Below, piece by piece: positions 16,435-47,420 of a stretch of DNA of 64,000 nucleotides. The DNA is taken from NCBI RefSeq assembly GCF_052425735.1, contig NC_135763.1:17438298-17502297 (forward strand), read 5' to 3'. The position numbers and the translations under genes were made by a program. This DNA comes from Oculina patagonica (taxonomy: Eukaryota). How positions within the stretch are numbered: the stretch's first letter is position 1; the number at the start of each line of letters is the position of its first letter. The notes beneath the pieces are model-generated. The model was given only the letters and a program-made list of their open reading frames with translations. It did not search any database and had not been told where the DNA came from.

Positions 16435-16904
16435 ATGGGAAACGGTAACACAAAGGCGGGAACTGTTCGAAAAGTTATGCAAGCTAACAAGAAATTCAGA
16501 GCGGCGCTTCAGCTTTGGGAAGACGATCGCTCCGATAGAGAGCCGTGGAAAACGATTCTCAGGAATGGACCGTCGGCTGTGTACCGCAAAAGAAAGGAAC
16601 TTATTGAATTCAAAGACGAAGAATTGATGGAATACTTCAACAATCTTCTCCAAGGACATATACAAGCAGATTCAAGATGGAGTCTTCCAACAAGAGAAAT
16701 TGCTATATTTTTGAGTTCAACTTTCACAGACATGACAATAGAACGGGACTTGCTAATGGAAGACGTGTATCCATATTTGCGAGAATTTTGTCGACGGTTA
16801 GGGTATAATTTCAGTGTAGCGGACATGAGGTGGGGAGTGCGTGACGAGATGACAGACGAACATCAAGCGGTAGAGATTTGTGTGACAGAAGTTCAAAGGT
16901 GCAG
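16435..16904 (+). CDS. NWD1/NWD2-like (NACHT and WD repeat) gene, exon 1: MGNGNTKAG… with an N-myristoylation-type MGxxxT motif and the start of a DUF4062-like region (IAIFLSSTFTDMTIERDLLMEDVYPYLREF)
   Basis: ATG at 16435, a 470-nt open frame and a GTAAGT donor at 16905. IFxSSTFxDMxxERDxL is the DUF4062 signature that starts NWD1 proteins. Confidence 0.8.
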
Positions 16905-17215
16905 GTAAGTAAATTGTTCATGCGTTTATGATTGTTTAGGCAAATAATAGTTAAAAAATAGCAGAGTGCATTTCTCTTCCTAAATGGCGTGTGAGTTTTT
17001 TAAACAACTTTACAAAAAAAAAAAACACATATTAATTGTTTTAAGATGTGATGTCCGTGACGTGCATGTATTCGCAAGAAAATCTAAAAATAATGTTGCT
17101 TAGTAACCTTTAAATAAATAATTGAACGTGTACAAAAATCTGTTATCATTTTTCAATACTTTATAAATGTTGAAGGATAAGGTCTCGATTAGTTGCGAAC
17201 CAATTTACCACCTAT

Positions 17216-17700
17216 CTTATTACATGAAATTTTCGCGACACGTTAATTTCGCGAATTTCGCGATTCTAAAAAAATCGAGAAATTAAAGTAAGTGTCGCGA
17301 ACATAACATGACGCAAACAATAAAGTGACTAACATATGTCAATAATAAAAAAAGAATAAGTTTATTACCACTGAAGGAAGGAATCTTCAATGTAAATTGA
17401 TGTTGTCGTCAATCGATTCAAGAACAATTACTCATGCACGACTTACAAGCATGACCTACTTGTAGACATTGTGAGAACTGCTCTCTTGTTGCTCTCGCCG
17501 AGAGTTTGTCCCACCGTTGCGTTTTTGTTAATTTTGGCGTAATTGTTCTTTCCTCGTTTCAATTAATTCAAAGACATATGTTAAAATAAAATATTATTGC
17601 CAAGGAAATGTTAATTGAAACGCGAAATTAAAGTGATTCACAATACAATATTTTCGCAAAATCGCGAAATTTAAGTGTCGCGAAAATTTCATGTAATAAG
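17216..17700. mobile_element. MITE-like element, ~485 bp, TIR CTTATTACATGAAATTTTCGCGACAC(G)TTAATTTCGCGAATTTCGCGA
   Basis: 17216-17265 is the reverse complement of 17650-17700. Confidence 0.65.
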
Positions 17701-18320
17701 GTACTTAGTATTTTAGCAAACAGAGATGTCCCAAAGATAGTGACTTGCTAAACTCCATAAAGTGTCTTGCCTACGTAATGCCATTATCAAAAGTATTGCC
17801 TTATTAGGAAAAAAGGTTTACTTCCGGGTGGTTAGCAAATGTTCACAAATGTTTATGAAGATCTTATAAACTATTTTTCCTGTCAGTAATTGATTGACAT
17901 ATATCTGGTGGTAGTTGTGCACAACAGTGTCTAGCATATGTACAATAGTGTATACGGATAAGGGCATAAGGGTCCATAAGAAGAATGAACACACTCGTTC
18001 ATACTGCGCTGTCCTTACTTAGGAATCACCGTTATATAATCATGAGCGTAAACACAAGAAGAACGAACAATTTTGTTTTCTTGTGCCTATGACAGTGTTA
18101 TGCCAATGCAACGACTACGAGGACAACCTAAGGAGAATAAGTTTGTTCGTTTTTCTTATGCTTGTGTATATGCTCAGTAAAAACCACTGCAGCCTTAAGA
18201 AAACAACATAAGAAGGACCTCTGCTGATTAGACCATTTTGCTTTTATGTGTGCGATAAAACAATAATCACAAAGTTCATCATTAATTTGCGTTAATCTAC
18301 ACTTGATGCTGTTTTACCAG

Positions 18321-18968
18321 GAAAGAGTCTGTAGGACCTTACATGGTTTGTCTCATTGGTGACAAGTACGGCTACAGACCAGTTCCTGTCAAGATTGACG
18401 AGGAAGTCTTTGAAATGCTTTTGGGAAGCGTCAAGAGTAACAGTGGGAATAAAAACGCCTCCGAATTATTGGAAAAATGGTACAAACTGGATGAAAACAG
18501 CGTCCCTGCAGCCTACGTCTTACTGCCGATTTCAACATTCTTTCCTCACGCTTATAAGCACGCTGTTGACGTCGATGATGCAAAGGCGAAGCAAGAAAGA
18601 CAACAATGGTGGCAAACTCTGGTGACAATGAGAGAAGCTTTGAAAAAGGCTGCGAGTCAGATAGATTTTACCGCCTTTCCTGGCTGTGCCTTGACGGAGG
18701 ACGATTTTAAGATATCAGTGACAGAAGAGGAAATTACAACTGGTATTAAAGGGGAGGACATGGACCCTAATTACATGTTTCTATTTCTTCGGTCCCTTAA
18801 CGGGTTAGAAGAAGTTAATCCGAATAATAATGGATTTGTAAAGCGTTTTGTAGATGTTGACGAGCGTGGGAGGAAATCGCAAGCTACAACTGGAGATGAT
18901 GCAAAATGCTTGCTGGACAAGCTCAAGGATGACTGCCAAGGGTTTATACCAAAAAATAACATCTGCAG
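18321..18968 (+). CDS. NWD-like exon 2 (…KESVGPYMVCLIGDKYGYRPVPVKIDEEVFEMLL…DKLKDDCQGFIPKNNIC)
   Basis: Acceptor at 18320 and donor GT at 18969. The phase is continuous with exon 1, and the sequence continues the DUF4062-like domain. Confidence 0.8.
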
Positions 18969-19793: not shown

Positions 19794-19912
19794 ATATAGC
19801 CTTGACTTTCACGTCACCAAGGATGGTCACATTGACACAAAACAGAACAAAGAAGAAATAAAGACATTCTGTGACAAGTTTTGCCAGTTAATGGTCGACA
19901 GCATTCAAGAAG
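19794..19912 (+). CDS. NWD-like exon 3
   Basis: Acceptor TTTCAG at 19793, donor GTTTGA at 19913, phase-consistent. Confidence 0.65.
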
Positions 19913-20155: not shown

Positions 20156-20271
20156 CTGTGGCCAAGCATAAGGTAATTAACGACCCTCTGTATCTTGAAG
20201 TTCTGCACCATGCAACAGTGGCAGAGAAAAGAACCGAGGCATTTGTTGGCAGAACACACCCTTTGATAAAG
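20156..20271 (+). CDS. NWD-like exon 4 (AVAKHKVINDPLYLEVLHHATVAEKRTEAFVGRTHPLIK)
   Basis: Acceptor ACCAG at 20155, donor GTAACT at 20272, phase-consistent. Confidence 0.65.
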
Positions 20272-20406: not shown

Positions 20407-20442
20407 ATGGAAGCATACCTAAAGATGGAGAACGGTGAAAAG
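20407..20442 (+). CDS. NWD-like exon 5 (MEAYLKMENGEK, a 36-nt microexon)
   Basis: Acceptor TTTCAG at 20401-20406, donor GTTCGT at 20443, phase 0 to 0. Confidence 0.55.
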
Positions 20443-20542
20443 GTTCGTGAACACATATTTATTATCTGTAGTGAAGGACGGGGTTTGCTAAAGGTTGGGT
20501 GTTAAAATAGTACTAACTTTACAACACTGTCCTTTTTTAAAT

Positions 20543-20646
20543 CGCCTTTTCTAACCAAAGAGAAGTCAAGACACAAAAGTAACGTCATTGTAAGGTATCA
20601 ATGACGTTACTTTTGTGTCTTGACTTTACTTTGGTTAGAAAAGGCG
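20543..20646. repeat. 48-bp-arm palindromic hairpin (MITE-like) in an NWD intron
   Basis: CGCCTTTTCTAACCAAAGAGAAGTCAAGACACAAAAGTAACGTCATTG and its reverse complement are separated by 8 bp. Confidence 0.8.
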
Positions 20647-20870
20647 ATTCACTATGGCCAGAAGTTAAACGATTCAACAAAGCAACAATGCTGTACGTCT
20701 AGAACGGATTATAACCCCCAACTTTTATAGCTGAGCTACTGGATGTATTTGGCGGGGGAGACGTTTTTGTTGGTTTGTTTGTTTGTTCTGTTGTTTTTGT
20801 TACCTAGAACTATTAATTTTAAGAATGGTTTTTTTTTTCTTTGTTACTTAACTCACTATTCATTTGTTAG

Positions 20871-20971
20871 CCTTTCATTGTTCATGGTATATCGGGATGT
20901 GGAAAAACATCTCTCATGGCAAAGGTGTTCACGACGTCCCTTGAAAATTGGAGTGGAGTCGACACTGGAAG
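20871..20971 (+). CDS. NWD-like exon 6, the NACHT Walker A/P-loop: PFIVHGISGCGKTSLMAKVFTTSLENWSGVDTG
   Basis: GxxGxGKT(S) P-loop. Acceptor TTGTTAG at 20870 and donor GTAACT at 20972. Confidence 0.85.
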
Positions 20972-22408
20972 GTAACTATACTCAATATTATTAATATACA
21001 GCATCGCATAGAAACTTATACTACGTTGATTATTTTGTTGGTTTTTATAGTCTAGGAGCCAAGTCTGAGAAATGTTCGAGTCGTTGCACCCCCCTGCTAT
21101 ATTTGTGAGAAAAGCAAAAAAAAGACATATTAACATCTAAGTAGTACAGAAAAATATTTTTTATTGATGGGCTAGCGGGACATCGCTCCGAAATCGGCAT
21201 TCCCGTACGGGTACCGTTTTATCCAATTATGCTAATTTTTCAAACCTGAGAATTTGTAAGAGCCTGTACAGTGCAGTTTGGAATGCTTGATCGCACAATG
21301 CTAGAAGTCAAGTCATCTGTGTTGATGGGCTGTATTGTCTCGCTTTGACACTCTTTAGTGATGCTTTGTTGTATAATTGTTGCTGCGTGATACCGTGTTG
21401 CAATGTCATTGTCGTGTCGTAGTGGTACTCTCCAGTTGACGACAAGCATAAGACTTTTCGTCTTTGGCTAACTTGTTTAATACAGCAGACACGGATATAG
21501 CGCTTGGATACACCCATTCCTATATTACTATTTTGCGTGATGAGCATTTCCTTGGTTTTTGAGATTATTATTAGAGGGGGCGTCTTTTAGACACGGGTCG
21601 TTTATTAGAGAGGGGCGTCTAATACAAACTTTACACTTCAGGGGAGGCATTTATTAGATACGAGGCGTTTATTTGAGAGTGTGCGTTTATAAGATCATTT
21701 ACTGCAGTCCTTTTTAAACTTGAGCAAAAACTCTTGAAATAAGTCTACAGAACACTGGGCGCAAAATATCAAATTGCAGTTCCAACCAGGGTCTTAATTA
21801 AGTTCTTGTTATAATTAAGATAACTTTATTTTTACTGTTAATACTAACTCTTTCAGTCTGGGTTCCTAGAGATATTTGTGAGGCGAGTGTGACTCTCCAC
21901 GTGTAGAAATATGGGTAAATAAATCACGATATTGTATAAATGTAATTGCTCACGTGAGAAAGTGCGACATCTTGGAAAACAATATTTAAGGAAATGATTC
22001 AAGTCAATATTACATATAACTGCTGCGTAACAGGAACTCCTCTGAATGACTGTCTCAAATGAATGATTAATTTTTATATGCTTACACCCTGGCGTTCTTG
22101 TTTACTAATTTGGGAAAATAGACTAATAAGTTTTTGAACAGGAAAAGAAGTCCACGTCCAGGAAGCTAACATAAACAAACATTTCATTGAACAAAATTAA
22201 TTTGGAATACTTGCGCTGCACAACTCTGCTTGGCAACTTTTCGTGATTTTTTTTTTTTTTGATTAGAACATAGAAAATTGATGTTTGGCCATTAAATAAT
22301 TTACAACATTTCCTACCAACAGTTCCTATAGAAACAGAAAAATAAACTTATGCTTAATGATGTGACTAACGTTAGAGAATTTTGACTTAATATTGTATAT
22401 CCTATTAA

Positions 22409-24183
22409 GGTCGCGGGGATCTATACAGCATGAATAAATTCATGAAGCGAAATTTTGCTTGACATGCATCTTTTAAAACGCTTATTCCTCGGTTGTGATG
22501 AATGCGATTTATTAAGCTCAAATTTTACAGAGACATAAAGAAATGATAAAAGATTATGTATGTCATCTTGTATTTGGTAGATTGTACCTACGGCGATGTT
22601 ATAGCCACGATACTGCCAAATTGGGAAGAACATGATTTCGTGGCAGAGTTTGTAGAACGAGTAGGAGACAGCACACTGTGATCTTGTCAAAAACTAATCA
22701 GTCAATATCTCTAGAGTGTCATAACAGAAGCGGATTTTTTAATTTAAAGTTTTCCAGCAAGTTATGGCGGTTTAAATGTGCAAATTTTAATTGAATGCCT
22801 TCTACCTCTTTCTAAAAGCGCTCTTTTAAAATTCCGCCTCTGTTATGACACACTACAGTATTCCTAGTTTACCTCTCTGCAGTGGCAGCTCATGAAGTTC
22901 TATATCCGCGCTGAATTCTCTGCCACAAAATTGTCGGAAAAGTCCAAACTTTGAGATTTCCGAAGGTGTCCCGATCAAAAAATGGTTTAAAAATGATAAT
23001 TTTGGTAATTATATTCCACGCTTTAATGATGAGAACAATGCGTTTTCAAAGAGACAAACAATTCCAGACGCAAACACATCAAATCACGCGCGCGTGCTCA
23101 TATTTTTTATGCACTCCCGCAATATCTCGTCGTTAAGGTCGCGGGGGATACCAACAGCATGAATAAATTCATGAAGGGAAATTTTGCTTGACCTGCATCT
23201 TTTAAAACGCTTATTTCTCTGCTGTTATGGGTGCGATAAAGCTCAAAATTTACAGAGACATAACGAAATGATGAAAGATTGTGAATGTCATCTTTTATTT
23301 GGTAGATTACATTTTACGGCGATGTTATAGCCTCGTTAGTGCCAAATTGGGAAAAACATGATTTTGTGGCAGAGTTTGCGGAACGAGTAGAAGACAGCAC
23401 ACTGCGATTTTGTCAAAAACTAATCAGTCAATACCTCTAGAGTGTCATAACAGAAGCGGATTTTTTAATTTAAAGTTTGCCAGCAAGTTATGGCGGTTTA
23501 AGTGCGCAAATTTGAATTTAATGTCTTCTACCTCTCTCTAAAAGCGCTCTTTTAAAATTCCGCTTCTGTTATGACACACTACAGTATTCATAGTTTACCT
23601 ATCTGCAGTGGCAAGTCATGAAGTTCTGTATCCGCGCTGTATTCTCTGCCACAAAATTGTCGGAAAAGTCCAAACTTTGAGATTTCCGAAGGTGTCCCGA
23701 CCTAAATACGATCATTTTGCCAAGGAGAGATGTAATTATGGTAATTATATTCCACGCTTTTATGGTGAGAACAATGCGTTTTCAAAAAGGACACGATTGT
23801 TTATGCCGAATATTTTTGTGATTACTCTGAGTACAATAGTTGCAGAAATAGTCAAATTTAAATAAAAATAAGCTCAAAGACTTCCTACAATCTATATGAA
23901 CGTATGTCGCTAAGTGTTGTTTTAAATTGGTTAAAATATCAAAGAAACAGGGATTTTTTACAAGTCACGCGCACGCGCTCATATTTTTGTCCGGTCATAA
24001 ATATCTCGTAAAGTTGTCGATGTGAGTCGTTGTACTTCGTGCATACGCTTTAAATAAATGCATAATGATGAGCCTAAGGTGTCCCCCGCGACCTTAAGTT
24101 CTCGATGTCAGTCGTTGAACTTCGTGCATACGCTTTAAATAAATGCATAATGATGAGCCTAAGGTGTCCCCCGCGACCTTAAG
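22409..24183. repeat. 728-bp tandem repeat (2 copies, the second with a ~150-bp insertion) plus a terminal 2x ~60-85-bp tandem, inside an NWD intron
   Basis: The unit starts at GGTCGCGGGG at 22409 and again at 23137. Each unit contains an internal inverted repeat (GAGTGTCATAACAGAAGCGG … CCGCCTCTGTTATGACACAC). The tail at 24040-24183 repeats …GAGCCTAAGGTGTCCCCCGCGACCTTAAG twice. Confidence 0.8.
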
Positions 24184-24614: not shown

Positions 24615-24696
24615 GCCATTTCAGCTCATAAGATTCATTGGAACTTCACCTTCCTCGACCAATGTGAGATCGCTACTGAGAAGTCTATGTCATCAG
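24615..24696 (+). CDS. NWD-like exon 7 (RPFQLIRFIGTSPSSTNVRSLLRSLCHQ)
   Basis: Acceptor CTGCAG at 24614, donor GTAACG at 24697. Phase 2 into 0, matching exon 6. Confidence 0.75.
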
Positions 24697-24830: not shown

Positions 24831-24939
24831 ATGTGTCTGGTGCTGAATGACTCATCAACTGTCATCACAGACAACTATGAGCGTCTGGTAGCAACATTTC
24901 GATCCCTTCTCCAAAGAGCCACTCCTGAAAAGCCATTCG
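24831..24939 (+). CDS. NWD-like exon 8 (MCLVLNDSSTVITDNYERLVATFRSLLQRATPEKPF)
   Basis: Acceptor CTGCAG at 24830, donor GTAATG at 24940. Confidence 0.75.
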
Positions 24940-25400: not shown

Positions 25401-25585
25401 TTTTGTTTTTGGACTCCTTGGATCAACTGTCCGACCAGGATGATGGGCGTGCTCTAAGATGGCTGCCGACAAGTTTGCCCAAAAATGTTCACATCATCCT
25501 GAGCACGTTACCTAACACTGGGGGATGCCTTGCTGTCCTGAAAACTAAACTGAAACCAGAGAACAACGCTGACTTTTATCTTGAG
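25401..25585 (+). CDS. NWD-like exon 9 (VLFLDSLDQLSDQDDGRALRWLPTSLPKNVHIILSTLPNTGGCLAVLKTKLKPENNADFYLE)
   Basis: Acceptor TCTCAG at 25400, donor GTACGT at 25586. The LFLDSLDQL motif corresponds to the NACHT Walker B/sensor region. Confidence 0.8.
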
Positions 25586-26050: not shown

Positions 26051-26170
26051 TTTTTTCCCCCTTTTATTTAATAATTTTTTATTAATACTATGAATTAAAT
26101 AATTAACAAAAACTAAAATAAACGGGTGGATAACAGTAGTAAATGCGTTTGCTTAATTGCTCTCAACAGG

Positions 26171-26235
26171 TTTCATCCCTAGAATTCAGTGATGCAGAAA
26201 ACATTCTAGACACGAGATTGGAAAACGAGAAAAGG
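26171..26235 (+). CDS. NWD-like exon 10
   Basis: Acceptor CAACAG at 26170, donor GTATTC at 26236, phase-consistent. Confidence 0.6.
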
Positions 26236-27049: not shown

Positions 27050-27220
27050 GAAAATCACAGAAGAGCAAAGACTACAAGTATTGGAAACCTGCTCCAAGCC
27101 AACAGCTCTGTACATGAAGTTAGCTTGCGATACGGCTCTTCGATGGAAATCTTTTTCCCAGGACACACACAAAGAACTAAGACCCACAGCAACCGAACTT
27201 ATCATACAGCTCTTCGAACG
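27050..27220 (+). CDS. NWD-like exon 11 (RKITEEQRLQVLETCSKPTALYMKLACDTALRWKSFSQD…)
   Basis: Acceptor CATAG at 27049, donor GTACGT at 27221. Confidence 0.8.
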
Positions 27221-27417: not shown

Positions 27418-27620
27418 CTTAGTCACCAAGCATGGAGAACAGTTTGTACGTAGAGCCTTAGGTTACATAACAGCCTCCAAAACGGGTCTAACAAAGTCAG
27501 AACTAGAAGATGTTTTATCCTGTGATGATATCGTGCTCGCTGACGAGGTCTTCAAATATCACGTGCCTCCAATCAGAAGACTGCCTCCATTACTGTGGAC
27601 ACGACTAAGGAATGACCTAG
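27418..27620 (+). CDS. NWD-like exon 12 (…GLTKSELEDVLSCDDIVLADEVFKYHVPPIRRLPPLLWTRLRNDL)
   Basis: Acceptor TTCAG at 27417, donor GTAAGA at 27621. Confidence 0.8.
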
Positions 27621-27917: not shown

Positions 27918-27994
27918 GGCAGGGTGGAGGGTTTGAATCCGTAACCTCTGGATTAGAACACCAGCGCCCTTAACCACTCGGCCACATTGCCTGC
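27918..27994 (-). pseudogene. tRNA-derived sequence (class-II-type D-arm GTGGCCGAGTGGTTAAGG; pseudo-tRNA or SINE head) in an NWD intron
   Basis: Reverse complement: GCAGGCAATGTGGCCGAGTGGTTAAGGGCGCTGGTGTTCTAATCCAGAGGTTACGGATTCAAACCCTCCACCCTGCCA. It has an A-box and a degenerate B-box. The anticodon stem has only 4 bp plus a mismatch, and the acceptor stem has 5 of 7 pairs, so it is not a functional cloverleaf. Confidence 0.4.
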
Positions 27995-28035: not shown

Positions 28036-28186
28036 GGAGTTATTTGGTCAAAGTAGCAGCGGACGGTCACGTGGTATACAAGTGGTATCACAGGTTGTTT
28101 CTGGAGGCAGCAAGGAGTTACTTTTTGAGTGATAAGCCTTTTACGGACTCGCTTCACAGAGATCTAGCGAACTACTTTAATGGCAG
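28036..28186 (+). CDS. NWD-like exon 13
   Basis: Acceptor TTGCAG at 28035, donor GTAAAT at 28187, phase-consistent. Confidence 0.75.
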
Positions 28187-28653: not shown

Positions 28654-28654
<1 letters not shown>

Positions 28655-28706
<52 letters not shown>

Positions 28707-28725
28707 GTCAACCAATCAACCAAAC

Positions 28726-28813
<88 letters not shown>

Positions 28814-28889
28814 CAATCAATCAATCAATCAATCAATCAACCATCAATCAGTCAATCAATCAATCAATCAATCAACCAATCAGTCAGTG

Positions 28890-28928
<39 letters not shown>

Positions 28929-29019: not shown

Positions 29020-29233
29020 GTGGGCACGGGAAGCAAAGCCATATACAGATAAGCAAGGCAACACAAGAAGCGCTCACAGAATGGTGGCAGACCAACCGCT
29101 GATATTAAGTACTGACGTCGACGATAAGATGGATTTGGGAGATGAAGAGGCGGGACCGAGATACAATTTGCGCAAATTAAGCGAGCTTCCTTATCATTTG
29201 ATACGATCTGAGATGTGGTACGAATTTGTTGAG
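29020..29233 (+). CDS. NWD-like exon 14 (…DLGDEEAGPRYNLRKLSELPYHLIRSEMWYEFVE)
   Basis: Acceptor CTGAAG at 29019, donor GTTTGT at 29234. Confidence 0.8.
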
Positions 29234-29891: not shown

Positions 29892-29969
29892 ATTGTCTGC
29901 CAGATTCCGTGGCTAATGGCAAAATGTAAGGCTGGCAAAGCATTCGAACTCACCCTAGAACTCTCTGAG
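29892..29969 (+). CDS. NWD-like exon 15
   Basis: Acceptor TTTCTAG at 29891, donor GTAAGA at 29970, 26 codons. Confidence 0.7.
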
Positions 29970-30478: not shown

Positions 30479-30634
30479 GCTTCACTGAAGTGCACCAAAG
30501 ACAAATCAGCCATTATCGAAGATGTTTATAGCTGCATTCGAGCCAATGCTCAACAGCTGAGACAGTTTCCTGAGCTAGTTCCCCAACTCTGTCTCAATGA
30601 GCCGTACGTCTCATACTGTCAAACCATGGCACAG
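30479..30634 (+). CDS. NWD-like exon 16
   Basis: Acceptor CTGCAG at 30478, donor GTAAGT at 30635, 52 codons. Confidence 0.75.
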
Positions 30635-31274: not shown

Positions 31275-31305
31275 AAATATTTAAAGACTACCAGCAGCTC
31301 TTCAG
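31275..31305 (+). CDS. NWD-like exon 17 (31-nt microexon; splice choice uncertain)
   Basis: Acceptor ACGCAG at 31274, donor GTAAGA at 31306. This is needed for phase continuity into the next exon. An alternative upstream exon 31532-31694 in another frame cannot be excluded. Confidence 0.45.
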
Positions 31306-31694: not shown

Positions 31695-31855
31695 GTAACA
31701 AGATCACTCTATGGCGAGACCTGACAAAGCTGGAATCTCGAAAGATTAACGTTGCATCATTTAAGCACCCGACAGCGGTGCGAAAATGCGTGTTTTCCAA
31801 AGGATGCAAATATCTTGCCACTTATGCTGCAGACGGGGTGTTACGTATTTTCATG
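31695..31855 (+). CDS. NWD-like exon 18, the first WD40 exon (…NKITLWRDL…VRKCVFSKGCKYLATYAADGVLRIFM)
   Basis: Pyrimidine-rich acceptor …CATCTGGCCCCAAG at 31694, donor GTAAGT at 31856. The sequence has typical WD40 repeat features. Confidence 0.55.
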
Positions 31856-32677: not shown

Positions 32678-32825
32678 GTGGCAAGTGGCTACACCGTCAT
32701 GACAAAACATTGTGACTGTCACGTGATATCGTTTCCTGCAAGCATCGACCAGTGTCATTGGGTCGCAGTCGCGGGCACAAAATCCATTGTCCGTTACGGC
32801 TTAGGCTCCGGTGGCAAACACGAAG
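32678..32825 (+). CDS. NWD-like exon 19 (WD40)
   Basis: Acceptor TCTTTAG at 32677, donor GTAGGC at 32826. Confidence 0.65.
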
Positions 32826-33327: not shown

Positions 33328-33413
33328 GTACTATCCTGCAAGAGATAAAAGTTGACTGCGACATAGATGACAGAGCAAGCCTCGCTATCACCAAGAAAGG
33401 AAAAGTTTGGGAG
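33328..33413 (+). CDS. NWD-like exon 20
   Basis: Acceptor TTGTTAG at 33327, donor GTAAGT at 33414. Phase 1 in, matching exon 19. Confidence 0.65.
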
Positions 33414-33662: not shown

Positions 33663-33752
33663 ATATTTCTAGCGACATCGCATGGCAAACTACGCTCGTA
33701 CAGTACTTCACCGTCCTCTCATGGACAGCCTGTCCTGAAAGAAGAGCTACCA
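33663..33752 (+). CDS. NWD-like exon 21
   Basis: Acceptor CATTGCAG at 33662, donor GTACGT at 33753. Confidence 0.6.
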
Positions 33753-34242: not shown

Positions 34243-34335
34243 AGAAGACCAAAAGTTCTTACTATCTCACCAAATGGGAATTCACTCGCTTTTGGATCAG
34301 ACAAGGTGTATTTATGGAGCCCTAAATCTCAAAAG
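34243..34335 (+). CDS. NWD-like exon 22 (…NGNSLAFGSDKVYLWSPKSQK, a canonical WD repeat)
   Basis: Acceptor TTATAG at 34242, donor GTAAAT at 34336. Confidence 0.75.
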
Positions 34336-34824: not shown

Positions 34825-34957
34825 GATGTCAAAGTGTTCGAAACAGGCAAAAAGACGAATCCACAAATGGACAGAGCTACCTTGCGTTTCTCAAAAAATG
34901 GAGCGAAGCTTGGAGCAGTGCTATCAAATGGAACATACATTTGGAACACACAATCTG
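34825..34957 (+). CDS. NWD-like exon 23 (WD40)
   Basis: Acceptor CATTAG at 34824, donor GTTAGT at 34958. Confidence 0.7.
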
Positions 34958-35549: not shown

Positions 35550-35662
35550 CAAAGCTACTTAGAACACTTGCCCTAAATTGTTTGGGCGTGGAATTTGTGG
35601 TGTTTTCTCCAGAGTTTGACTACATTGCATCTCAAGAGCTGAAAGACAAAGAGCACCTTCAG
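35550..35662 (+). CDS. NWD-like exon 24
   Basis: Acceptor GTTGCAG at 35549, donor GTATAT at 35663. Confidence 0.7.
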
Positions 35663-36122: not shown

Positions 36123-36317
36123 GTGCTATGCATGGCTCCACCGTATGACAAAAGTCCAGAATGGGAAACACTGACTGGCCATTCTGGTGAAGTTAGGGAC
36201 TGTTGTATTGGGAACAGAGAAAGCGGCCATCCCTTGATTGCCAGTGCATCAGATGACAACACAGTTCAACTGTGGGATACCAGGAACATGCCTTCCCCAA
36301 AAGTCGTAAAACTTCCG
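36123..36317 (+). CDS. NWD-like exon 25 (…TLTGHSGEVRDCCIGN…LIASASDDNTVQLWDTRN…, WD40)
   Basis: Acceptor CTTAAAG at 36122, donor GTAAGT at 36318. The GH…SDDxTVxLWD motif is the hallmark WD repeat. Confidence 0.85.
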
Positions 36318-36474: not shown

Positions 36475-36619
36475 AATCACAACCATTCTGTTCAAGAGTG
36501 TACGTTTTCAAGCGATGACAGATTAGCAGTAAGCTGCTCTGCAACTGAGACATGGGTGTGGCAAGCTCAACAGCCAGTCCATAGGCTTCACCGGTTGCAC
36601 CCAGCTTCTGGTACTGGTG
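36475..36619 (+). CDS. NWD-like exon 26
   Basis: Acceptor TGTTTTAG at 36474, donor GTAAGA at 36620. Confidence 0.7.
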
Positions 36620-36740: not shown

Positions 36741-36818
36741 AATCTCCGACGGGAATTAGGCCCATGGCCTTCTGAAAACGGCGGTCGGACGCTCTAACCA
36801 CTGAGCTACATTGAGGCT
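36741..36818 (-). pseudogene. tRNA-derived SINE-like sequence (A-box TAGCTCAGTGG, degenerate B-box) in an NWD intron
   Basis: Reverse complement: GCCTCAATGTAGCTCAGTGGTTAGAGCGTCCGACCGCCGTTTTCAGAAGGCCATGGGCCTAATTCCCGTCGGAG. No canonical anticodon or T arms can be folded. Confidence 0.35.
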
Positions 36819-37132: not shown

Positions 37133-37271
37133 CAAGTGGTACCTGTCCTTGTTTCTCTGAAGACAGCGAGTTTGTATCAGTGTTTGTGGAGACAGGAGTT
37201 GACGTGTGGCACCTCAAGTCAGGACTTGATCCTCATGGATCAGACAGGAGCCTACTCATGGGAGCACATAG
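37133..37271 (+). CDS. NWD-like exon 27
   Basis: Acceptor TTTGTAG at 37132, donor GTAAGA at 37272. Confidence 0.7.
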
Positions 37272-37522: not shown

Positions 37523-37751
37523 AACTCTCACCTTACTTACTGTCCGTCACCTCTTCACCAAGTTTACATCTGATGGCCTGTACTGCTGCTTACACACCGA
37601 AAGTGAACCTAATACAGTCCGACTGTACCTTGCTGTCAACAAATACTCTCTAGAAAGATGGGCACATTATGCGCTCAAAGACCCGCCTCCAAGTGACTTA
37701 AATGATCAGGAACCCTTTGAGCAAAGATTTTCAGTTGACGAGGGGAATAAG
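37523..37751 (+). CDS. NWD-like exon 28
   Basis: Acceptor AAACAG at 37522, donor GTAATA at 37752. It matches ORF 37506 in frame. Confidence 0.7.
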
Positions 37752-38522: not shown

Positions 38523-39135
38523 TTTCTCCAAAAATCGACTAATATCGCCTTTCGGCGGCACAAATTGAAAAAATAGATTTCGCTCGTATTTTGCCCATAG
38601 ATAGGCCCTAGTGAGAAACTAAACGGACTGCAGTTAGTTTTTCCTAATACAGCTTCCTTTCGTAGAAATATGCAAAAAAAGATTTTGCCCCAAATTGGGC
38701 GCAAAATCAACTTCCGGTTTGACTGATTTTATTGAAAGTTTGATCGTCTCGTGCGTTATACTGCAGCTGTTTATTGATATTTCAATAATATTTATAATGT
38801 CTTTAGGTATTTAGTGTATGACTGAGCGAAAAATAAAACAAATCGAGATTTATTTTTAGCCTGAAACGGGGATAAATCCAAAGGCAAAATTTGCAAATGA
38901 GTAGCAAGCGAAATTATGCAGTAAAACTCTGCCATTTTTTTCTATGTGCGATAACCTAAAATATCGTAAAAACAATTTTTATGGGTTAACTAGACATTTA
39001 TCTAATAAGATACTCAAAAAAATCTCTGGGGAAAAGGTTTTTAGTGGCCCACTTTGGCCTTTGTTTATCACTAGTTTTGCCGTAAATCAGAAAAAATGTA
39101 AACAATTGCGTGACACTGCTTGTCACAATACCCGC
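38460..39135. repeat. long inverted-repeat copy 1 (~650 bp), the left terminus of the composite element
   Basis: About 85% identical to the reverse complement of 46041-46712. For example, TTTGCCCATAGATAGGCCCTAGTGAGAAACTAAACGGACTGCAGTTAGTTTTTCCTAATAC matches GTATTAGGAAAAACTAACTACGGTCCGTTTAGTTTCTCACCAGGACCTATCTATGGGCAAAAT, and GGTTTTTAGTGGCCCACTTTGGCC matches GGCCCGCTTTGGTCTG…. Confidence 0.8.
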
Positions 39136-40124: not shown

Positions 40125-40215
40125 CACGAACTTTGCTGGTTTTCACTTGAAGCAGGTACCAGACTTCATTACCCCTTGAAGCTTATCGATGTAAGGTTTC
40201 TTTTGGGTCAAGTTA
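40125..40215 (-). repeat. duplicated fragment of the 3' end of the transposase-like ORF (encodes TQKKPYIDKLQGVMKSGTCFK*), ~650 bp downstream of the real stop
   Basis: 40130-40215 is ~80% identical to 40795-40870, in the same orientation. Confidence 0.75.
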
Positions 40216-40789
40216 TCATGATCATAACATGGGAAGCACCAATATCGCTAGATATTGCCAATTAGTATTTCATATTAAAAACACATTATATTTGTAGACA
40301 TGTTACCTCGCTGTTGATAAAGCGGAGAAAAATAGCTTTTTTAGCAGTACCTACTAGACTCCACATACCATCCCTCTTATAGGAAGGGAAAGGCCCACCT
40401 TCTTCACCGCTTCTTTGGCGTCCCCTTTGTTCCCCTTTTGCTGTCTACACATAGCGTTTTCTGTCGCATTTGGGTGATATTTCATTGTGAAAGCCCCCCC
40501 CCCCCCCCTAACGCTCTAAGCCTGTTTTAAGCAGGGCTTAGCTTGAAAGTTTGCACTTTTTAAACAAGGCTGGAGCCGGGTGGGGTCAAGGCAACCAGAT
40601 TGTGGAAGATAAAATATCTGAAAGGAGTATGGAGCAGGGTGCTAATAGTTTTAACTATTTTAAAAATACCGAGAAAGCTTCTACTTAATACTTAATACTG
40701 TTACAAAATGATCTTCTTTAAATGATGAGATAACGCATTTGTCAATACTTTAACATTGGACGGAGAAAATGCGGCTTCTTTGTAGGCTT

Positions 40790-43534
40790 TCACTTGTAGC
40801 AGGTACAAGATTTCACCACCTCTTGAAGCTTATCGATGTAAGGCTTCTTGCGGGTTATCGTGACATTTGAAACATCAATGCCTAGAAAGATGCAGATGTC
40901 GCGCAAAACGGTAACACGAAAAGTAGCTGCAAGTTTGCCACTGGAGGCAAGCTCGCAGATGTTATAAGTGTCATGCATAATGGGATGCTGAAGAGCTACT
41001 AAATTGGACACATCTCTGCGCATCTCACTTAACGCTTCTTCATGGCGCGCACAGATCTCTTCTTCCTCGTCTTCCTCGGTCACAACATCAACATTTCGTT
41101 TGGCAGCCAGTCTGGAAAAAAAGCCCCGGATTTGCTGCGTTGTCAGGAATTCGCTGAATGTGAACAGACGATTGCCATTGGAATCTTTGGCAGTCCTCAT
41201 TTCTTTGGACACAGTGGCCGGGTCAAGCTTTCTTCCTGTTTTTTGCCCTATCTCAAATTTCTTTATGAGGTAATCTTTTTGATTGGAATTGAATCTTTTC
41301 CCAACAAAGGAACTCTTGAGCGCCCAGCCCATGGACATAGGAGGATTCTGAACATCACAACTGCTATCTTTTCCGAGGCACGCCACGTCGCCTAGTTCCT
41401 CGACTTTGGATCCACCCTTTTCAAGCTCATAGGCATACCTTAGCATTGCTCTGTCCAGAAGTGTCTCCTGTTCCAAAGCACGTTTGTGCTTTCCACATTG
41501 AAGGTGTTGCTCAAGACTGGAGTACCTTTGATATGTCATGATGCAACCTTCTTCAGGACAAGAAAACAATCCAGAATTGGCGTTTCCCTCGTCGCTGGCA
41601 CTTCCGTCATCATCGCCGTCAGACGAGGTAACTTCTGCAGGGCATTTAACCTTCCGAGGTTTCAAATCGACAAATGGCAAATGAGTGCTCCTTTCACGAT
41701 CAGTTCCGATATCGACAATCAAGTGACGTTCGCCATCGCTATCAGTCACCTGGAATTTGCTCCAAGGAATTAATTTTCCCGGGCCAATTCCGTATGCCCT
41801 TCACACCCTCAAACAATCGCTTTCATACTGGATGTTGTTAACAAAACTAACACCTTCCCATCTGACGGCTTTCTGCGTTTGCAACTGAGGCGTTTCTACC
41901 TCAATGTCATTGCCTTCATTGAGGTAGATTTGCATGTGGGATTTAATGGTCGCCGCTTTTCGGTCACATGCTCCCTTGCCACCTTGTGGATCCGAAAAAT
42001 CCATTCTCTTCAAGGTAACACCGGCTTTATCTGCTACCACTTTAGCACCAACAATGGTCGAAACACAGTGATAGCACCCCGCGTTGTCCTGTCTGTAGAA
42101 TACTGATTCAAGGTTTGGCATACCAATCTTTAACTTTGTGAGAACATCCGCCATTATGTCAAGCACTGAGTGACTGTCCTGGTTGCAAGCTTGAAAAATG
42201 TGCACGAATGCCATCGTCTCGATTTGTCGGTTTGGTCGCTGCCTTAGTGCCACTGTGATGTGCCAAGGTATCCCTCGCTTGGCAAACCAGTCGCTTTGAC
42301 TTTCTCTATACTTTCTGGGAAGGAACTTCATGGCCCAATCTTGGACCAAGAAAACAGAATTTTCCTCTAACATTTCCATTACATCGACTCTGGCCTCATC
42401 TTGGTTAACTGCACGAAGAAGGTGAGCTTTCCAGGCACTGATGCTACGCCTTGCTTGTTCAGTGTTAAAGGTCAACTCGTCCATTTCTTCGCTTTCTGTT
42501 GCAATTAGCTTAAGGGCGTCTTCTATTTCTCCAATGCTCACCTCCACCAGGCTGCAACGATCACACACCCCATCATGGATATGACTACATTCTCCCTGGT
42601 ATTCGGAGCATTTGGCATCACTGAGCGCAAAACATCTACAATGGTCTGGGACAGTCGACGACTCAGAAACATGTACCTTAAAAAATCAAAGAGGATCGTA
42701 TGAGAAATTACGCTTTAAAAACAAGCACGTGTTAGTCTCAAAGCTGTTACCATGTTTCAAGGGTTATTTGTTGTCCTTACCGTGAAGTCACTTTTCAGGT
42801 AACGCTTGGCCAATTTCAGTTGCTCCTTTCTTTGTTTCGCCCAGGACATACCCATTCCAAGCTCTCCCAGTCGCTCAGCCACAATTTCAAGTTCCTCAAA
42901 CGCTTTCGCGCCAGAAGCAGTGATGTAGTCCAGACCTTGTAAGGATTTCCTCACGGAGGCAGAACAGACGTCAAGAATTCGAAGCAAAGAGCTTCGGCTC
43001 AAGCAGGTTATGCCTGACTCCTTGCAGTACTCTTGATATTCTGTGCTATACGTTCTGGAATCATCACGTCCTGATAACATTGGGTACTGCGATCACTTCA
43101 CCGGAACTCAAAGTAAGGTTTTTCTGTCCAAATGGTAAATCTTGAATGATGTGCTGACTGGTTATGAAACAAATGAAGTGGTCAACCATTTCCGGGGAAA
43201 CGTACATTCTCTTCTGGATAGGTTTAGGAACAGGAGAGCCTCTACCATGGATCAGCAGGTGCTGTCTGGCAGAATCGATACTGTGCGAGGTTTGAATCCA
43301 CCCAACCAGATAGACATTGCGACTGTATCCCACTGGGTAGCATTTGTAGCATTCGCTAAGACAGTAAAAAGATGACTTTTTTGTTTCTGAGGATGTTGAG
43401 GGAAAATGCTGATTTATTGCCTTTGAAGAGACCAGTTTGTCCCACAATTTATCAGAATCTTCGCCAGCTATAACTTCCAATGAGGCGGCTACAGCCTCAC
43501 TCGCCTTCTTTACATAGTAACGTTTGTTCTTTCG
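40790..43534 (-). pseudogene. putative DDE/D transposase-like gene (unknown superfamily). At least 2 exons are joined by a GTAAGG…TTTTTTAAG intron (42677-42780), and the frame is interrupted by an in-frame TGA (41798-41800) and a frameshift near 43064-43080
   Basis: Blocks on the complement strand: 43534-43064 (KK/R-rich NLS-like start RRRKNKRYYVKK…); 43080-42781 (…KSLQGLDYITASGAKAFEEL…AKRYLKSDFT|GTAAGG); 42676-41801 (VHVSESSTVPDHCRCFALSDAKCSEYQGECSHIHDGVCDRC…LVQDWAMKF…VFYRQDNAGCYHC…MDFSDPQGGKGACD…ESDCLRV*); 41797-40790 (…CPEEGCIMTYQRYSSLEQHLQCGKH… ending RKKPYIDKLQEVVKSCTCYK*). Confidence 0.5.
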
Positions 43535-43904
43535 CCGACGTCACCAGGGTGTCTAAAGAAGTCGAATAGGATTAGTCTCTGGCGCAAATTACAGATGACC
43601 TTCGACAGGAGTTTTTTGGCAGGTGCACAAGACGGAGAGGCATAGACCCGGGGTATCGGTTAAAAATGCTGACCTCGCCTCTGTAACTGGGGTACTCGTG
43701 AATGACTTTGTCTGTTACTGTACTGATTTCCTAAAAAACGCAATGGCAGATAATTTAAATAAATCCACTTTACTATTTTACGCCCCTAAGCGCAATGCCG
43801 CGTACAACTACATGAAGACCAATAAAAACCTATGAATCAACCGGAATGGCGGGGGATGAACCTCTTTATTCGAATGGCCAACGATTCGTCATTTGCGATA
43901 TATT

Positions 43905-43985
43905 GTCAGTGATCAATGTTCACTGGAGCCATCAGTCAATCAGTCAGATCCATCAGTCAATCAATCAATCAAGCAAGCAAACGAT
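43905..43985. repeat. (CAATCAGT/CAAT/CAAG)n microsatellite inside the element
   Basis: Read directly. Confidence 0.85.
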
Positions 43986-46040
43986 CAGTCAGTAGGTCAA
44001 ACATATCATCATTAATACGCTTCACCTGTCACTGCCATCAAGTGTTGCTGGGGAAGTAAGTGAGAGGGAGAATAGACTAAGTGATGAAGTAAGTGATGAC
44101 CACTATAAAAAATTTAAATTTTACATTTCCCGTAGATTAACTCTCGTTTTACTGGACACGCTCGGGGCGTCGTTCAGTGCTCAGTATTTCCGTATATCAG
44201 TGTCCGCAATAGCGGGGTGTCCGTAAGGCGAGGGTTGACTGTAGATCATAACAAGGGGGCGAATTAAAAACAAATCTTTCATGTAAACAGGCTCTTAACA
44301 TGCTCTAATCTTAATCGTGAATTTTTTTTTTTTTTGTTTACACCATTACTCCTTTAATTTAAACTTTTAAGGATAAGGAAGCCCTAGGTTTTTTGGGTCT
44401 TGATTGTGTCCCCCATCCGATCATCCCCGTCACTCGAAATCCCAAATATCCCCTCCCCCCACCCCCAAGAGGTGGTCATGCCTTTATATATATTTTCTCA
44501 TTTTGTCCGAAATAAATAAATTTTCACTTGCTTAAAACGGCATGGATTTCTTTTAAGTAAAGGCTTATCATTGTCACATTTTTCTTACCCTGAATGTCAA
44601 CTCTTTCATTTGACTCACAACTTCTTCTTCCTTGTTATTATGTCGACAAGTGGAGGCGAGTTCTTTGCTGCTAATTTTGACAACAGTTCTCTTTTTGGAC
44701 GCTGAACTCAAAATTTCCCTGCATGATCTGCACATACCTTATGCAAACAGAAGGAAAACTATCAGACGTTTTTGAAATGCCTGTATAAGACAAGAAGCGA
44801 TAACCCGAGTGAGAAGTCGATATCTACCTGATCCAACGGGAACCAAATGTCCCGTTCTTATAGAATTAACTTCGAGAAGTCTTTTTACCCCTCTTTCGGC
44901 TTTTGGATATTTTCCTCTCACCATTTTATTAGAATTATCTTGAGGACCCTACATCTTTCGGTTCCTCTTGTCCAGCCGAGACCAAGGGAGAGCGAGTGAT
45001 GGGCAAACAGTCATCACCGAATTTTGTGGAGTGTTAAACATCGCCGCACGAGCAAGTATTAACTCAATTTCACTTTCCACAAGGAATAAAAGAGTTGTGC
45101 TACATTTTTAGTGCACGATAAAAGTGGGACGATCTCCGTAGACTGCTTTCTGTCTCTGCGATCAAAGGAGCACTGACCACCAACTAATGACTTAAAAGAA
45201 CAACAAGCATTCATCTTGTTCGAAGAGTCGTGTTTACTGAAGTGAGGAATTTCGGATAAGGACGTGTTTTCAAACTTAGATAATTTAATTTAACAATTTC
45301 TTATCGCAAGTAAAATCGATTTAGGACTGATCCAAATATTGCGTTGAATTCTGGCGCTAATCATATTCGAAGTTTCAGTTCATTGAAATGTACTATTCGG
45401 GCTAAAAAACGTAGAACTCTGAATATAACTTAAAAAACTATAAGGCAATTGTATTTTTCTGTTAGATCTTATACCATAAAGGTGTTTATAGTCCTCAGTA
45501 ATACCTTCAGTGTTGATACCTGTTAGTAAATAATTCTAACCAACATTTTTTTTGCTTTATATTTTGCTTCGCTTATAGGATAATAATTGGGAAAATATCG
45601 GCAATCTGATACAAAAAGAAACAACAACGCATTAACGAACAAAATCAACATCATTGCACTCCGGCGGCAAATACTTATAATTTAATTATTTGCTAGTTCC
45701 CTTCAGGGTCCTTCAGATCACGTAAAGAAATAAACCAAACAACATTGACTCATTGTTACGTTTTATAATTGAACTGAGAATGCTTTTTATTTATACGACC
45801 GGTTTTTGAAAATGATCGAGGGGTTAACAGCTTAAAACTACTAACACAGAATTTCGCTAGCTTAAACCTTACCGACGAGCCGTCTAGCATGTTGTGATAA
45901 AGAGCGTGTTAAGATCACGCAATTATTTCAAAACGGGTAAAGGGAAAATCTATTATTGCTTTTACCTTTTCAAAGAGTTTAGCACATGACCGTTTCTATA
46001 CTTGGGTTGTTTGAAAGTATTTGTTTCAAAAAGATAATTT

Positions 46041-46712
46041 CCCTCGCGCTTTACTAGCCTTGTCACGTAATTCCTGTCACGCTAAAACGGCAGATTTTCG
46101 GCGAAATTAGTAATAAGTACAGACCAAAGCGGGCCACTTAAAACCTTTTTCCCAGAGATTTTTAAGATATCCTATCAGATGGGTGTCTCTTTAACCCATA
46201 AAATGTATATTCACGTTATTTTAAGTTATCGCACATAGAAAAAAATGGCAAAGTTTTACTGCATAATTTCGCTCGCGACCCAATTGCAAATTTTGCCTAT
46301 CATTTTATCCCCATTTCAGGCTCAAAATTAATCTCGAATTGTTTTATTTTTCGCTCAGTCATACAATGAAGACCTAAAGAGAATATAAATACTATTGAAA
46401 GATCCATAAACAGCGGCAGTAAAATGCGCGAGGCGATCAAATTTTCAAAAAAATCAGTCAAACCGGAAGTGGATTTTGAGCCCAATTGGGGCGAAATCTT
46501 TTTTGACATATTTCTACGAAAGAAAAATGTATTAGGAAAAACTAACTACGGTCCGTTTAGTTTCTCACCAGGACCTATCTATGGGCAAAATATTAGCGAA
46601 AACGTGCATTCCATTTGTGCTGCTGTCTGGTTGATAATTCTAGGAAGTCGCACTTAATACCGTAAAATTTGAAAAATACTCCTACCCTCTCAAAAGTAAG
46701 CCCCAGACCTAA
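46041..46712. repeat. long inverted-repeat copy 2 (~650 bp), the right terminus, ending ~110 bp before the NWD terminal-exon acceptor
   Basis: See copy 1. Confidence 0.8.
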
Positions 46713-46820
46713 AGTATTTTAAAAGCCGCACAAATATCTCAGACGCAAAAGCTCTTTCAGCAATAACCTTCTGCTTAATCCAGTATTCAATCCGCGTTTT
46801 TTTTGTATCTCTGCCAACAG

Positions 46821-47420
46821 ATCACAGAGGCAGCTATATCAAGCACTTGCGGTAGACTTGTGGCAATAAGTGTACCAAGACAAAACAGCAGTCAGGAATG
46901 GATGAAGGGACCCGCCGACATACACATGTGGGATCTTAACAACCACACAGACTGGAAAGTCCAGTTGACTTTGCATTCCTCTATAAGTCGTCAGCTGAAA
47001 GTTGGTTGTGACTATCTGGCGACGTTTGTTCAATATCGTAAAAATGTTTCTGATGCTAAGAGAATTAAAAGCGGTATGCGAAGAAGGGGCTCAAACGTTG
47101 CTTACTCTGTTGTCGATGAAGCAGTCATCCAGCTCATTGATAAGCAGGGATCGACGCTTCAGACTTTTCAAATTCCTGGCAAGTTTTCTGGTGTGAGTGT
47201 GGTTAATAGTGAATCCACTTTGAGAAGCATTTCGGAAGGACTGTTGGTTTATAGTCTTCAGGAAGGCGTCGTGAAGCTACAGAACGTCAAATCTAACAAA
47301 GTGTTAGGAACCTTTACCGTAAACAACACGGAGATAACAGCTGTGAACATTGCATCAAATGGGAAATCTGCCGTTGTAGGCTGTGCAAATGGTAATGTGC
47401 ACATCATTCAGATGATTTGA
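46821..47420 (+). CDS. NWD-like terminal exon (…ADIHMWDLNNHTDW…TAVNIASNGKSAVVGCANGNVHIIQMI*, WD40)
   Basis: Acceptor CTGCCAACAG at 46820, phase 0, stop TGA at 47418-47420. A 9-kb intron containing the composite transposon precedes it. Confidence 0.75.
   Translation: MTEAAISSTCGRLVAISVPRQNSSQEWMKGPADIHMWDLNNHTDWKVQLTLHSSISRQLKVGCDYLATFVQYRKNVSDAKRIKSGMRRRGSNVAYSVVDEAVIQLIDKQGSTLQTFQIPGKFSGVSVVNSESTLRSISEGLLVYSLQEGVVKLQNVKSNKVLGTFTVNNTEITAVNIASNGKSAVVGCANGNVHIIQMI

Follow-up and report, generated by a model that had tools for sequence, protein, structure and literature searches.

An intron-rich NWD1/NWD2-type STAND gene of Oculina patagonica with a TIR-like DUF4062 domain and a candidate myristoylation-type N-terminus

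The window analysed here comprises 64,000 nucleotides (nt) of Oculina patagonica contig NC_135763.1 (assembly GCF_052425735.1, positions 17,438,298 to 17,502,297 of the forward strand). It is AT-rich, with a GC content of about 0.37, and intron-rich, and between 16.4 and 47.4 kb its plus strand carries a run of short open frames with evident protein-like sequence. These frames belong to one intact protein-coding gene of 29 coding exons that is under purifying selection and extends from the ATG at position 16435 to the TGA stop at 47418-47420. The coding sequence (CDS) of 5067 nt contains no internal stop and encodes a protein of 1688 amino acids (aa) which, by its domain content, is a STAND protein of the NWD1/NWD2 type. 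All introns have GT...AG ends, most donors reading gtaag or gtaa (that of exon 1 is CAG/gtaagt), and the phases are consistent throughout. The initiating ATG has a G at positions −3 and +4 and is preceded by an in-frame TGA 12 nt upstream, while conservation with the orthologous locus of a relative at 70% identity (L004) starts exactly at this ATG. The in-frame stop and the beginning of the conservation rule out a coding extension 5′ of 16435.

The model was built without a prior exon list from stop-to-stop open reading frames (ORFs), comparative data, and a splice-aware dynamic programme for which the clearest exons served as training set. Used alone, the programme skipped real exons under a strong intron penalty (22 exons) and added spurious in-frame mini-exons under weaker ones (40 or 58 exons); its output was taken as junction proposals only, to be curated against the comparative data. 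A chain of 28 exons encoding 1648 aa, with all introns GT-AG and in phase, was likewise set aside: it lacked exon 21 and placed the acceptor of exon 27 30 nt too far downstream, and both were corrected by the mRNA-like contig L005 described below. This independent rebuild yields the same 29 exons, start, stop and phase-consistent junctions as the initial annotation of the locus, and recovers the two microexons (exons 5 and 17) and the acceptor at 31695 proposed there. Both microexons are matched in L005, and omission of exon 17 breaks the frame. Only the length of the product, given before as about 1400 aa, has to be corrected, the protein being about 290 aa longer.

Genomic orthologues were found through matches of single-exon ORFs, at 83% identity (L001/L002) and at 70% identity (L004); exon conservation is seen in L002 and L004, and in L004 it does not extend to the introns. 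Assembly GCA_044670265.1, several ENA metagenome assemblies, SRR15101699 and a contig whose name refers to a Tara metagenome are the sources of the nearest relatives. A protein search with the C-terminal half was dominated by bacterial WD40 proteins and returned one useful match, P0037, located on L005. The latter is Logan contig SRR15101699_1147, an mRNA-like sequence of 6214 nt from a related species that carries the whole CDS together with one retained intron. Its two ORFs, of 1274 aa and 434 aa, are separated by 282 nt with GT...AG ends; the interval falls at the exon 24/25 junction, deep in the WD region, and its removal restores the frame. In blastn and tblastn comparisons of L005 with the window every exon was matched in order, with breaks at the exon ends of the model, and the 1692-aa protein obtained after removing the intron aligns over its full length to the 1688-aa protein with 81.8% identity and four gap columns. 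The ratio of non-synonymous to synonymous substitution rates (dN/dS) against L005 amounts to 0.073 overall, with values of 0.05-0.13 for the individual domains, at a dS of about 1.5, which is near saturation.

The protein begins with a basic extension of 85 residues, followed by the DUF4062 region (about aa 85-430) placed just upstream of NACHT, a winged helix, an APAF1-type helical domain and a divergent WD40 region of about 700 residues. Pfam matches were judged against the curated cut-offs, given here in brackets. DUF4062 scores 33.0-36.7 bits (24.7) at aa 91-176, in a match that crosses the exon 1/2 junction. Around aa 442-639 lie NACHT (PF05729) with 40.4 bits (26.7), AAA_16 with 52.2 bits (32.6) and NPHP3_N with 40.3 bits. 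The NWD1-like winged helix HTH_NWD1 (PF25469) reaches 59.3 bits (27) at aa 690-801, APAF1_C (PF17908) 30.5 bits (22.8) at aa 874-969, WD40 (PF00400) 49.8 bits (27) at aa 1269-1305 and ANAPC4_WD40 26.8 bits (22.9); WD40 proteins of the PDB match the C-terminal region as well, down to E 1e-22. No TROVE or VWA match was found in the Pfam scan of the protein, nor one to TPR, the repeat type of TTC41 and NPHP3. In human proteins, DUF4062 stands next to NACHT in TEP1, NWD1, NWD2, TTC41 and NPHP3 (10.64898/2026.05.01.722283; 10.64898/2026.09.21.753143; 10.64898/2026.09.04.749371), and the combination DUF4062, NACHT and WD40 is the architecture of NWD1 and NWD2 (10.64898/2026.05.01.722283; 10.64898/2026.09.21.753143). 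Since the TROVE/VWA extension is absent, the protein is of the NWD1/NWD2 type and not of the TEP1 type, and orthology with TEP1 was rejected. The NWD1/NWD2-like architecture put forward in the initial annotation is borne out by the three Pfam domains, all above their cut-offs, and by HTH_NWD1.

DUF4062 has been described by Osinski et al. as a TIR-like NADase that also occurs in the bacterial phage-defence system Swarozyc; in their in vitro assays only TEP1 was active among the human proteins, in an E1008-dependent manner (10.64898/2026.05.01.722283). Hornebeck et al. named the domain TeTIR, reported that human NWD1 is N-terminally truncated, and found that the activity of TEP1 needs F902, S905, R914, R942, C959, R976 and E1008, R908 being poorly conserved and less important and mutation of W943 having only a modest effect (10.64898/2026.09.21.753143). 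Under the new name NIR, Le Mouellic et al. reported the domain from Avs2, Vulcan and Vesta as well as from 88% of metazoan genomes, where NLR-like proteins carry it in most cases at their N-terminus (10.64898/2026.09.04.749371). An occurrence of the domain in bacterial NLR-like and other conflict systems, stated in the initial annotation, is now published for Swarozyc, Avs2, Vulcan, Vesta and Evangelion.

Within the first 463 residues the only solved structure with sequence similarity is that of TEP1 (PDB 11gz; E 1.5e-11, aa 87-182). A profile of the window protein and 11 homologues matches 11gz with E 2.9e-18 and aligns the SVTExE motif on SVTEMEV of TEP1. Placing R908 and R976 on arginines of the 11gz chain gives an offset of 893 between chain and protein numbering, and E1008 is then the second glutamate of the motif, equivalent to Glu294 in SVTEEEI (Glu292 is also present). 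Across the collected homologues this glutamate shows almost no variation. F92, S95, R104, R132-W133-G134 and C149 are likewise identical to their TEP1 equivalents, so that the counterparts of F902, S905, R914, R942, C959 and E1008, six of the seven residues required in TEP1, are kept, or seven of eight positions if W943 is counted. The remaining one, R976, is replaced by Lys172, a residue that itself hardly varies across the NWD-like set. Modelling of aa 75-423 with AlphaFold2 on 30 sequences gave a predicted local distance difference test (pLDDT) of 82.9 and a predicted template modelling (pTM) score of 0.81. A Foldseek search of the modelled domain against the PDB gave nothing significant; the best structural matches of the domain are the TIR domains of RPS4, RRS1 and RPP1, at sequence identities of 6-9%. 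The TIR-like domain is complete, since the first β-strand (EIAIFLSS, strand A) is present, and about 100 residues are inserted between β-strand C and the helix that bears Glu294. The dN/dS of the domain is 0.085.

The N-terminus of the protein fits a lipid-modification motif. The residues GNGNTK agree with the PROSITE-type pattern G-{EDRKHPFYW}-x(2)-[STAGCN]-{P}, and a start of the form MGN[G/R]N[T/A] occurs in all eight orthologous sequences (window, L001, L002/L003, L004, L005, L006, L007 and L008), which share 65-95% identity: these begin with MGNGNTK, MGNGNAK, MGNGNTT or MGNRNTS, all fitting the pattern, and G2, N3 and T/A6 are kept while nearby positions vary. The first 25 residues have a net charge of +4 to +6 with no acidic residue. 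The agreement of MGNGNTK with the N-myristoylation consensus (G2, T6), remarked on in the initial annotation, therefore extends to the orthologues, in every one of which G2 and a small residue 6 are retained. Myristoylation is, on these grounds, a conserved and lineage-specific prediction.

Table 1. Coding exons of the NWD-type gene and repeat-derived features in its introns (window coordinates; L005 is the mRNA-like contig of a related species).
Feature	Position	Strand	Residues (aa)	Content and comparative support
Exon 1	16435..16904	+	1-157	MGNGNTK, basic extension, first half of DUF4062 (F92, S95, R104, R132-W133-G134, C149)
Exon 2	18321..18968	+	157-373	Rest of TIR-like domain: K172, ~100-aa insertion, SVTEEE with Glu294; tblastn matches in L002, L004, L005
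Exon 3	19794..19912	+	373-413	Kept in L002, L004, L005
Exon 4	20156..20271	+	413-451	L005 match
Exon 5 (36-nt microexon)	20407..20442	+	452-463	MEAYLKMENGEK; 12 residues in L005, IEGYLKMDNGGK, at the same place
Exon 6	20871..20971	+	464-497	NACHT Walker A GISGCGKTS (469-477)
Exon 7	24615..24696	+	497-524	L005 match
Exon 8	24831..24939	+	525-561	L005 match
Exon 9	25401..25585	+	561-622	NACHT Walker B VLFLDSLDQL (561-570)
Exon 10	26170..26234	+	623-644	L005 match
Exon 11	27050..27220	+	644-701	L005 match
Exon 12	27418..27620	+	701-769	NWD1-like winged helix
Exon 13	28036..28186	+	769-819	L005 match
Exon 14	29020..29233	+	819-890	L005 match
Exon 15	29892..29969	+	891-916	Part of APAF1-type helical domain
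Exon 16	30479..30634	+	917-968	L005 match
Exon 17 (31-nt microexon)	31275..31305	+	969-979	KYLKTTSSSS; 10 residues in L005, TYLETANKAE, between the flanking exons
Exon 18	31695..31855	+	979-1032	WD/β-propeller region begins; L005 match
Exon 19	32678..32825	+	1033-1082	L005 match
Exon 20	33328..33413	+	1082-1110	L005 match
Exon 21	33663..33752	+	1111-1140	Revealed by L005 residues 1130-1162, 88% identity
Exon 22	34243..34335	+	1141-1171	L005 match
Exon 23	34825..34957	+	1172-1216	L005 match
Exon 24	35550..35662	+	1216-1253	L005 match; L005 retains the intron after this exon
Exon 25	36123..36317	+	1254-1318	Sole canonical WD40 repeat (ETLTGHSGEV...TVQLWDT); Pfam and PDB WD40 matches
Exon 26	36475..36619	+	1319-1367	L005 match
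Exon 27	37133..37271	+	1367-1413	Acceptor 37133 set by L005 (ASGTCPCFSED)
Exon 28	37523..37751	+	1413-1489	L005 match
Exon 29	46821..47420	+	1490-1688	Last WD blades, stop TGA; Pfam ANAPC4_WD40 at aa 1630-1686
Degenerate copy of a multicopy, putatively DDE-type transposon	40790..43480	-		In the 9069-nt last intron, antisense; four ORFs: 43480-43064, 43080-42757, 42568-41801, 41749-40790
Degenerate tRNA-like sequence	27925..27986	-		Intron 12; A box TGGCCGAGTGG, B box GGATTCAAACC; regular-expression scan; Rfam tRNA 18.8 bits (cut-off 29)
Degenerate tRNA-like sequence	36741..36815	-		Intron 26; A and B boxes; Rfam tRNA 26.5 bits (cut-off 29)

The last intron contains a block of GC content 0.44-0.45, richer than the window, which holds a broken copy of a repeated element on the minus strand. 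Homologues of its 255-aa ORF number 1391 at E ≤ 1e-5 and are spread over many contigs; among the matches of the family, those with a name are all hypothetical proteins from the sea anemone Actinostola, and Pfam gives no match to the antisense ORFs. A structural model of a family representative shows a DDE transposase/integrase fold with an RNase H-like core, and the class is assigned by fold alone. No terminal inverted repeat was detected around 40.3-44.3 kb (seed 11, minimum length 18); the copy is degenerate. The fold and the copy number support an antisense DNA transposon, the identity that had already been given to this part of the intron. A direct repeat of 78 nt lies at 40131-40208 and 40778-40855 (85% identity); because the second copy forms the 3′ end of the transposase ORF, the first is taken for a piece of a further copy of this element, situated just beyond it. 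Elsewhere in this intron there is a foldback at 37923-38517, about 590 nt long, in which inverted repeats are nested and one pair of 32-nt arms is 100% complementary. A 510-nt repeat is present twice, in inverted orientation and 7 kb apart, at 38578-39088 and 46093-46601 (86% identity), on either side of the transposon block; the two could be the termini of a single large composite element or could have been inserted independently.

Within the NWD-type gene neither ARAGORN nor Rfam at its gathering threshold reports a tRNA, and the two antisense pseudo-tRNAs or short interspersed nuclear elements annotated before correspond to the two degenerate, sub-threshold sequences of introns 12 and 26 (Table 1). 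A tRNA-type B box (GGTTCGATT) also occurs within the intron retained in L005 (3821-4103), which suggests that tRNA-derived repeats occupy introns of this gene in relatives too. Intron 5 carries a near-perfect palindrome of 110 nt (20539-20650, 92% self-complementary) that resembles the plant MIR9563 hairpin with 52.8 and 48.9 bits on the two strands (cut-off 90); its most likely identity is that of a foldback or a repeat of the miniature inverted-repeat transposable element type, and not that of a microRNA gene. The 3.6-kb intron 6 contains a tandem duplication of about 650 nt (22405-23056 and 23133-23793, 89% identity). A (TCAA)n-type microsatellite at 28645-28928 in intron 13 reads INQSINQS... 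in all three frames, and a shorter copy at 43880-44000 adjoins the transposon block.

Outside the gene, a canonical tRNA-Lys with anticodon TTT lies on the plus strand at 6760-6832, about 9.6 kb upstream (Rfam 74.2 bits, in agreement with ARAGORN). A GC-rich block (0.50) at 2001-4000 with overlapping ORFs on both strands, for example 2427-2792 on the plus strand, is probably a retroelement remnant, because one ORF matches Pfam RVT_1 with 38.4 bits (cut-off 29.6). Downstream, 49637-51524 and 51524-53376 form a 1.9-kb tandem duplication of 97% identity, whose minus-strand ORFs 51191-51574 and 53043-53378, one in each copy, show weak similarity to UPA (about 22 bits, against a cut-off of 27) and may be exons of a downstream minus-strand gene of the ZU5/UPA type. 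A long trinucleotide microsatellite at 58121-58753 can be read, according to the frame and strand chosen, as poly-Ile, poly-Met or poly-Asp, giving artefactual ORFs of 136-210 aa. In the relative at 83% identity, an ORF with a zf-C4H2 Pfam match is found 2.5-4 kb upstream of the NWD gene (L001 4293-4496, L002 5614-5817).

By analogy with the NWD family and with the precedents of Apaf-1, NLRs and TEP1, and following the activation model proposed for TEP1 and the NWD proteins (10.64898/2026.05.01.722283), a mechanism may be outlined for the protein encoded here. In the model, the WD40 region would keep the NACHT module inactive and nucleotide-bound until a ligand binds. Ligand-triggered nucleotide exchange would then lead to oligomerisation with formation of a ring, and this would gather the N-terminal TIR-like domains and activate them. 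At the N-terminus, loss of Met1 is probably followed by N-myristoylation of Gly2, and we lean towards a protein that would be tethered to the membrane by its myristoyl-Gly2 together with the basic stretch of the first 25 residues. Taking into account that: (i) the protein agrees with TEP1 at six of the seven residues needed there, and (ii) the domain is under purifying selection, we favour for the TIR-like domain a latent N-glycosidase activity, most likely on NAD(P)+ or a related nucleotide; we give this assignment a little less than an even chance of being right, because human NWD1 and NWD2 and fly Nwd1 were inactive in published assays. Taken as a whole, an NWD-type STAND gene whose product would work along these lines is a likely explanation of the locus.

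Several observations weigh against parts of this reading. As regards the gene itself, it is highly improbable that the model has merged two genes, one with the TIR-like and NACHT parts and another with the WD40 part, or describes a pseudogene. Such a view could appeal to the automatic gene calling, which split L005 into two ORFs around the retained intron in the WD region, and to the fact that the RNA support comes from a related species and not from O. patagonica, the evidence for exon chaining being a relative at about 82% identity and a contig with one retained intron. A separate point against the main reading is that a single canonical WD repeat (aa 1268-1306) is recognised and the remainder of the C-terminal region of about 700 residues gives weak matches to propeller models. 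Against a merged model or a pseudogene, the interruption in L005 has the ends and the position of an intron, leaves the frame intact once removed, and lies well inside the WD region instead of at the NACHT/WD boundary; Pfam domains cross several exon junctions, and 5067 nt remain free of stops with low dN/dS in each domain. Separate NACHT and WD genes are disfavoured because L005 chains the same exons end to end, which upholds the single gene of the initial annotation. A more serious doubt concerns the lipid. The PROSITE-type pattern is short and of low specificity and matches many proteins that are not substrates, and the distant homologues at about 36% identity (P0025, P0026 and P0030) have no MG start, beginning with MAPRDEE, MPRDEA or, in the partial record P0030, MEVIRG. 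PMC4039239, besides, describes NWD1 as a cytosolic NLR-related protein. The match could accordingly be incidental and the protein unmodified and cytosolic like that NWD1, a possibility of appreciable weight that we nevertheless hold to be the less probable outcome. Against it stand the retention of G2, N3 and T/A6 in the eight orthologues while their neighbours vary, and the presence of Lys7 and a basic stretch behind them. Such a myristoyl-plus-basic arrangement is classic in Src and MARCKS.

The predicted enzymatic activity meets objections in published assays. Full-length human NWD1, NWD2 and NPHP3 hydrolysed neither NAD+ nor NADP+ (10.64898/2026.05.01.722283), the activity of the NWD2 TeTIR was 'substantially reduced or undetectable' (10.64898/2026.09.21.753143), and the domains of human Nwd2 and fly Nwd1 had no activity when expressed in E. 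coli (10.64898/2026.09.04.749371); in three independent studies, then, the domains of human NWD1 and NWD2 and fly Nwd1 lacked NADase activity or toxicity. The replacement in the present protein of R976 by Lys172 points the same way, since R976A inactivates TEP1, and R908 and R954 are not kept either, being Thr98 and Gln144. Mouse Nwd1, finally, has been reported as a scaffold whose N-terminal region binds Paics (PMC7186558). The TIR-like domain could on this evidence be a non-catalytic interaction module within an ATP-driven scaffold, as has been proposed for mouse Nwd1 in the assembly of purinosomes through Paics, an option that is the main rival and deserves consideration but about which we are rather doubtful. 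It has to face the conservation of the catalytic-type glutamate and of F92, S95, R104, R132 and C149, the dN/dS of the domain, and the fact that the published assays were made on resting or isolated proteins without an activating ligand. If the preferred latent N-glycosidase is carried to its furthest consequence, this lineage would keep an ancestral, fully equipped NWD protein, that is, a membrane-tethered STAND sensor whose complete TIR-like domain would, once induced, cleave NAD(P)+ as an effector of death or signalling; this activity would have been weakened or lost in human NWD1, with its truncated domain, and is undetected in NWD2. We regard this extension as unlikely; were it true, the protein would be an animal counterpart of plant TIR-NLRs and of the bacterial NIR/Avs systems.

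NWD1 has already been treated as an immune gene family in the comparative genomics of stony corals (PMC13440232), and DUF4062 is listed among the domains of the immune-receptor repertoires of sponges and ctenophores. Because the family has been reported across metazoan genomes at the frequency cited above and NWD1 is known in stony corals, the known ancestry of STAND sensors is left unchanged and the point of deep ancestry is not new. The gene is the correct annotation of a conserved animal gene, a further member of a known family. Two points, both read from sequence, would go slightly beyond the literature: an NWD protein from outside the vertebrates has an apparently complete active-site set, and its basic N-terminus of the myristoylation type is conserved. 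During 2026, DUF4062 moved from 'unknown function' to a TIR-like NADase common to phage defence and human TEP1, the NWD1/NWD2 branch having yielded no activity so far and its function being debated. The NWD protein described here, from an invertebrate, combines a complete domain with a conserved start of the lipid-anchor type and agrees with TEP1 at seven of eight active-site residues; it is a reasonable candidate in which to ask if members of the NWD family are latent enzymes and at which site in the cell they work.

The closest likeness is to NWD1 and NWD2 themselves, with which the protein shares the order DUF4062/TeTIR/NIR, NACHT, winged helix, APAF1-like helical domain and C-terminal WD40, none of the three having TROVE/VWA; the catalytic-type glutamate is common to all of them (10.64898/2026.09.21.753143). 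In having a TIR-like domain complete with β-strand A it differs from the truncated human NWD1 and is NWD2-like, whereas for its MGNGNTK start and basic extension the literature searched mentions no equivalent in either protein. The vault protein TEP1 (telomerase protein component 1) has a homologous TIR-like domain, with SSTF, ERDLL, RWGV, the cysteine and SVTExE in common, and likewise combines NACHT with WD40. The demonstrated E1008-dependent NAD(P)ase is a feature of TEP1; the protein described here lacks TROVE/VWA, has the extra residues between β-strand C and the catalytic helix, and carries Thr, Gln and Lys in place of R908, R954 and R976, and the Pfam models of the TEP1 propeller score far below their cut-offs against it. 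With Apaf-1 it shares a STAND ATPase, a winged helix, an APAF1_C-type helical domain and C-terminal WD40 repeats, but the ATPase is of the NACHT and not the NB-ARC type, and a TIR-like effector occupies the position of the CARD. A wider comparison leads to the plant TIR-NLRs (TNLs) RPS4 and RPP1, in which leucine-rich repeats take the place of the WD40 sensor repeats, and to the bacterial systems Swarozyc, Avs2-NIR, Vulcan, Vesta and Evangelion. The present gene is eukaryotic, intron-rich and outside any defence island, and PADLOC gave no match in it, whereas in the bacterial systems DUF4062 acts as an NAD+-depleting effector in phage defence (10.64898/2026.05.01.722283; 10.64898/2026.09.04.749371). 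Nonetheless, the plant and bacterial proteins and the one described here have in common the logic of joining a TIR-type effector to a sensor/STAND module.

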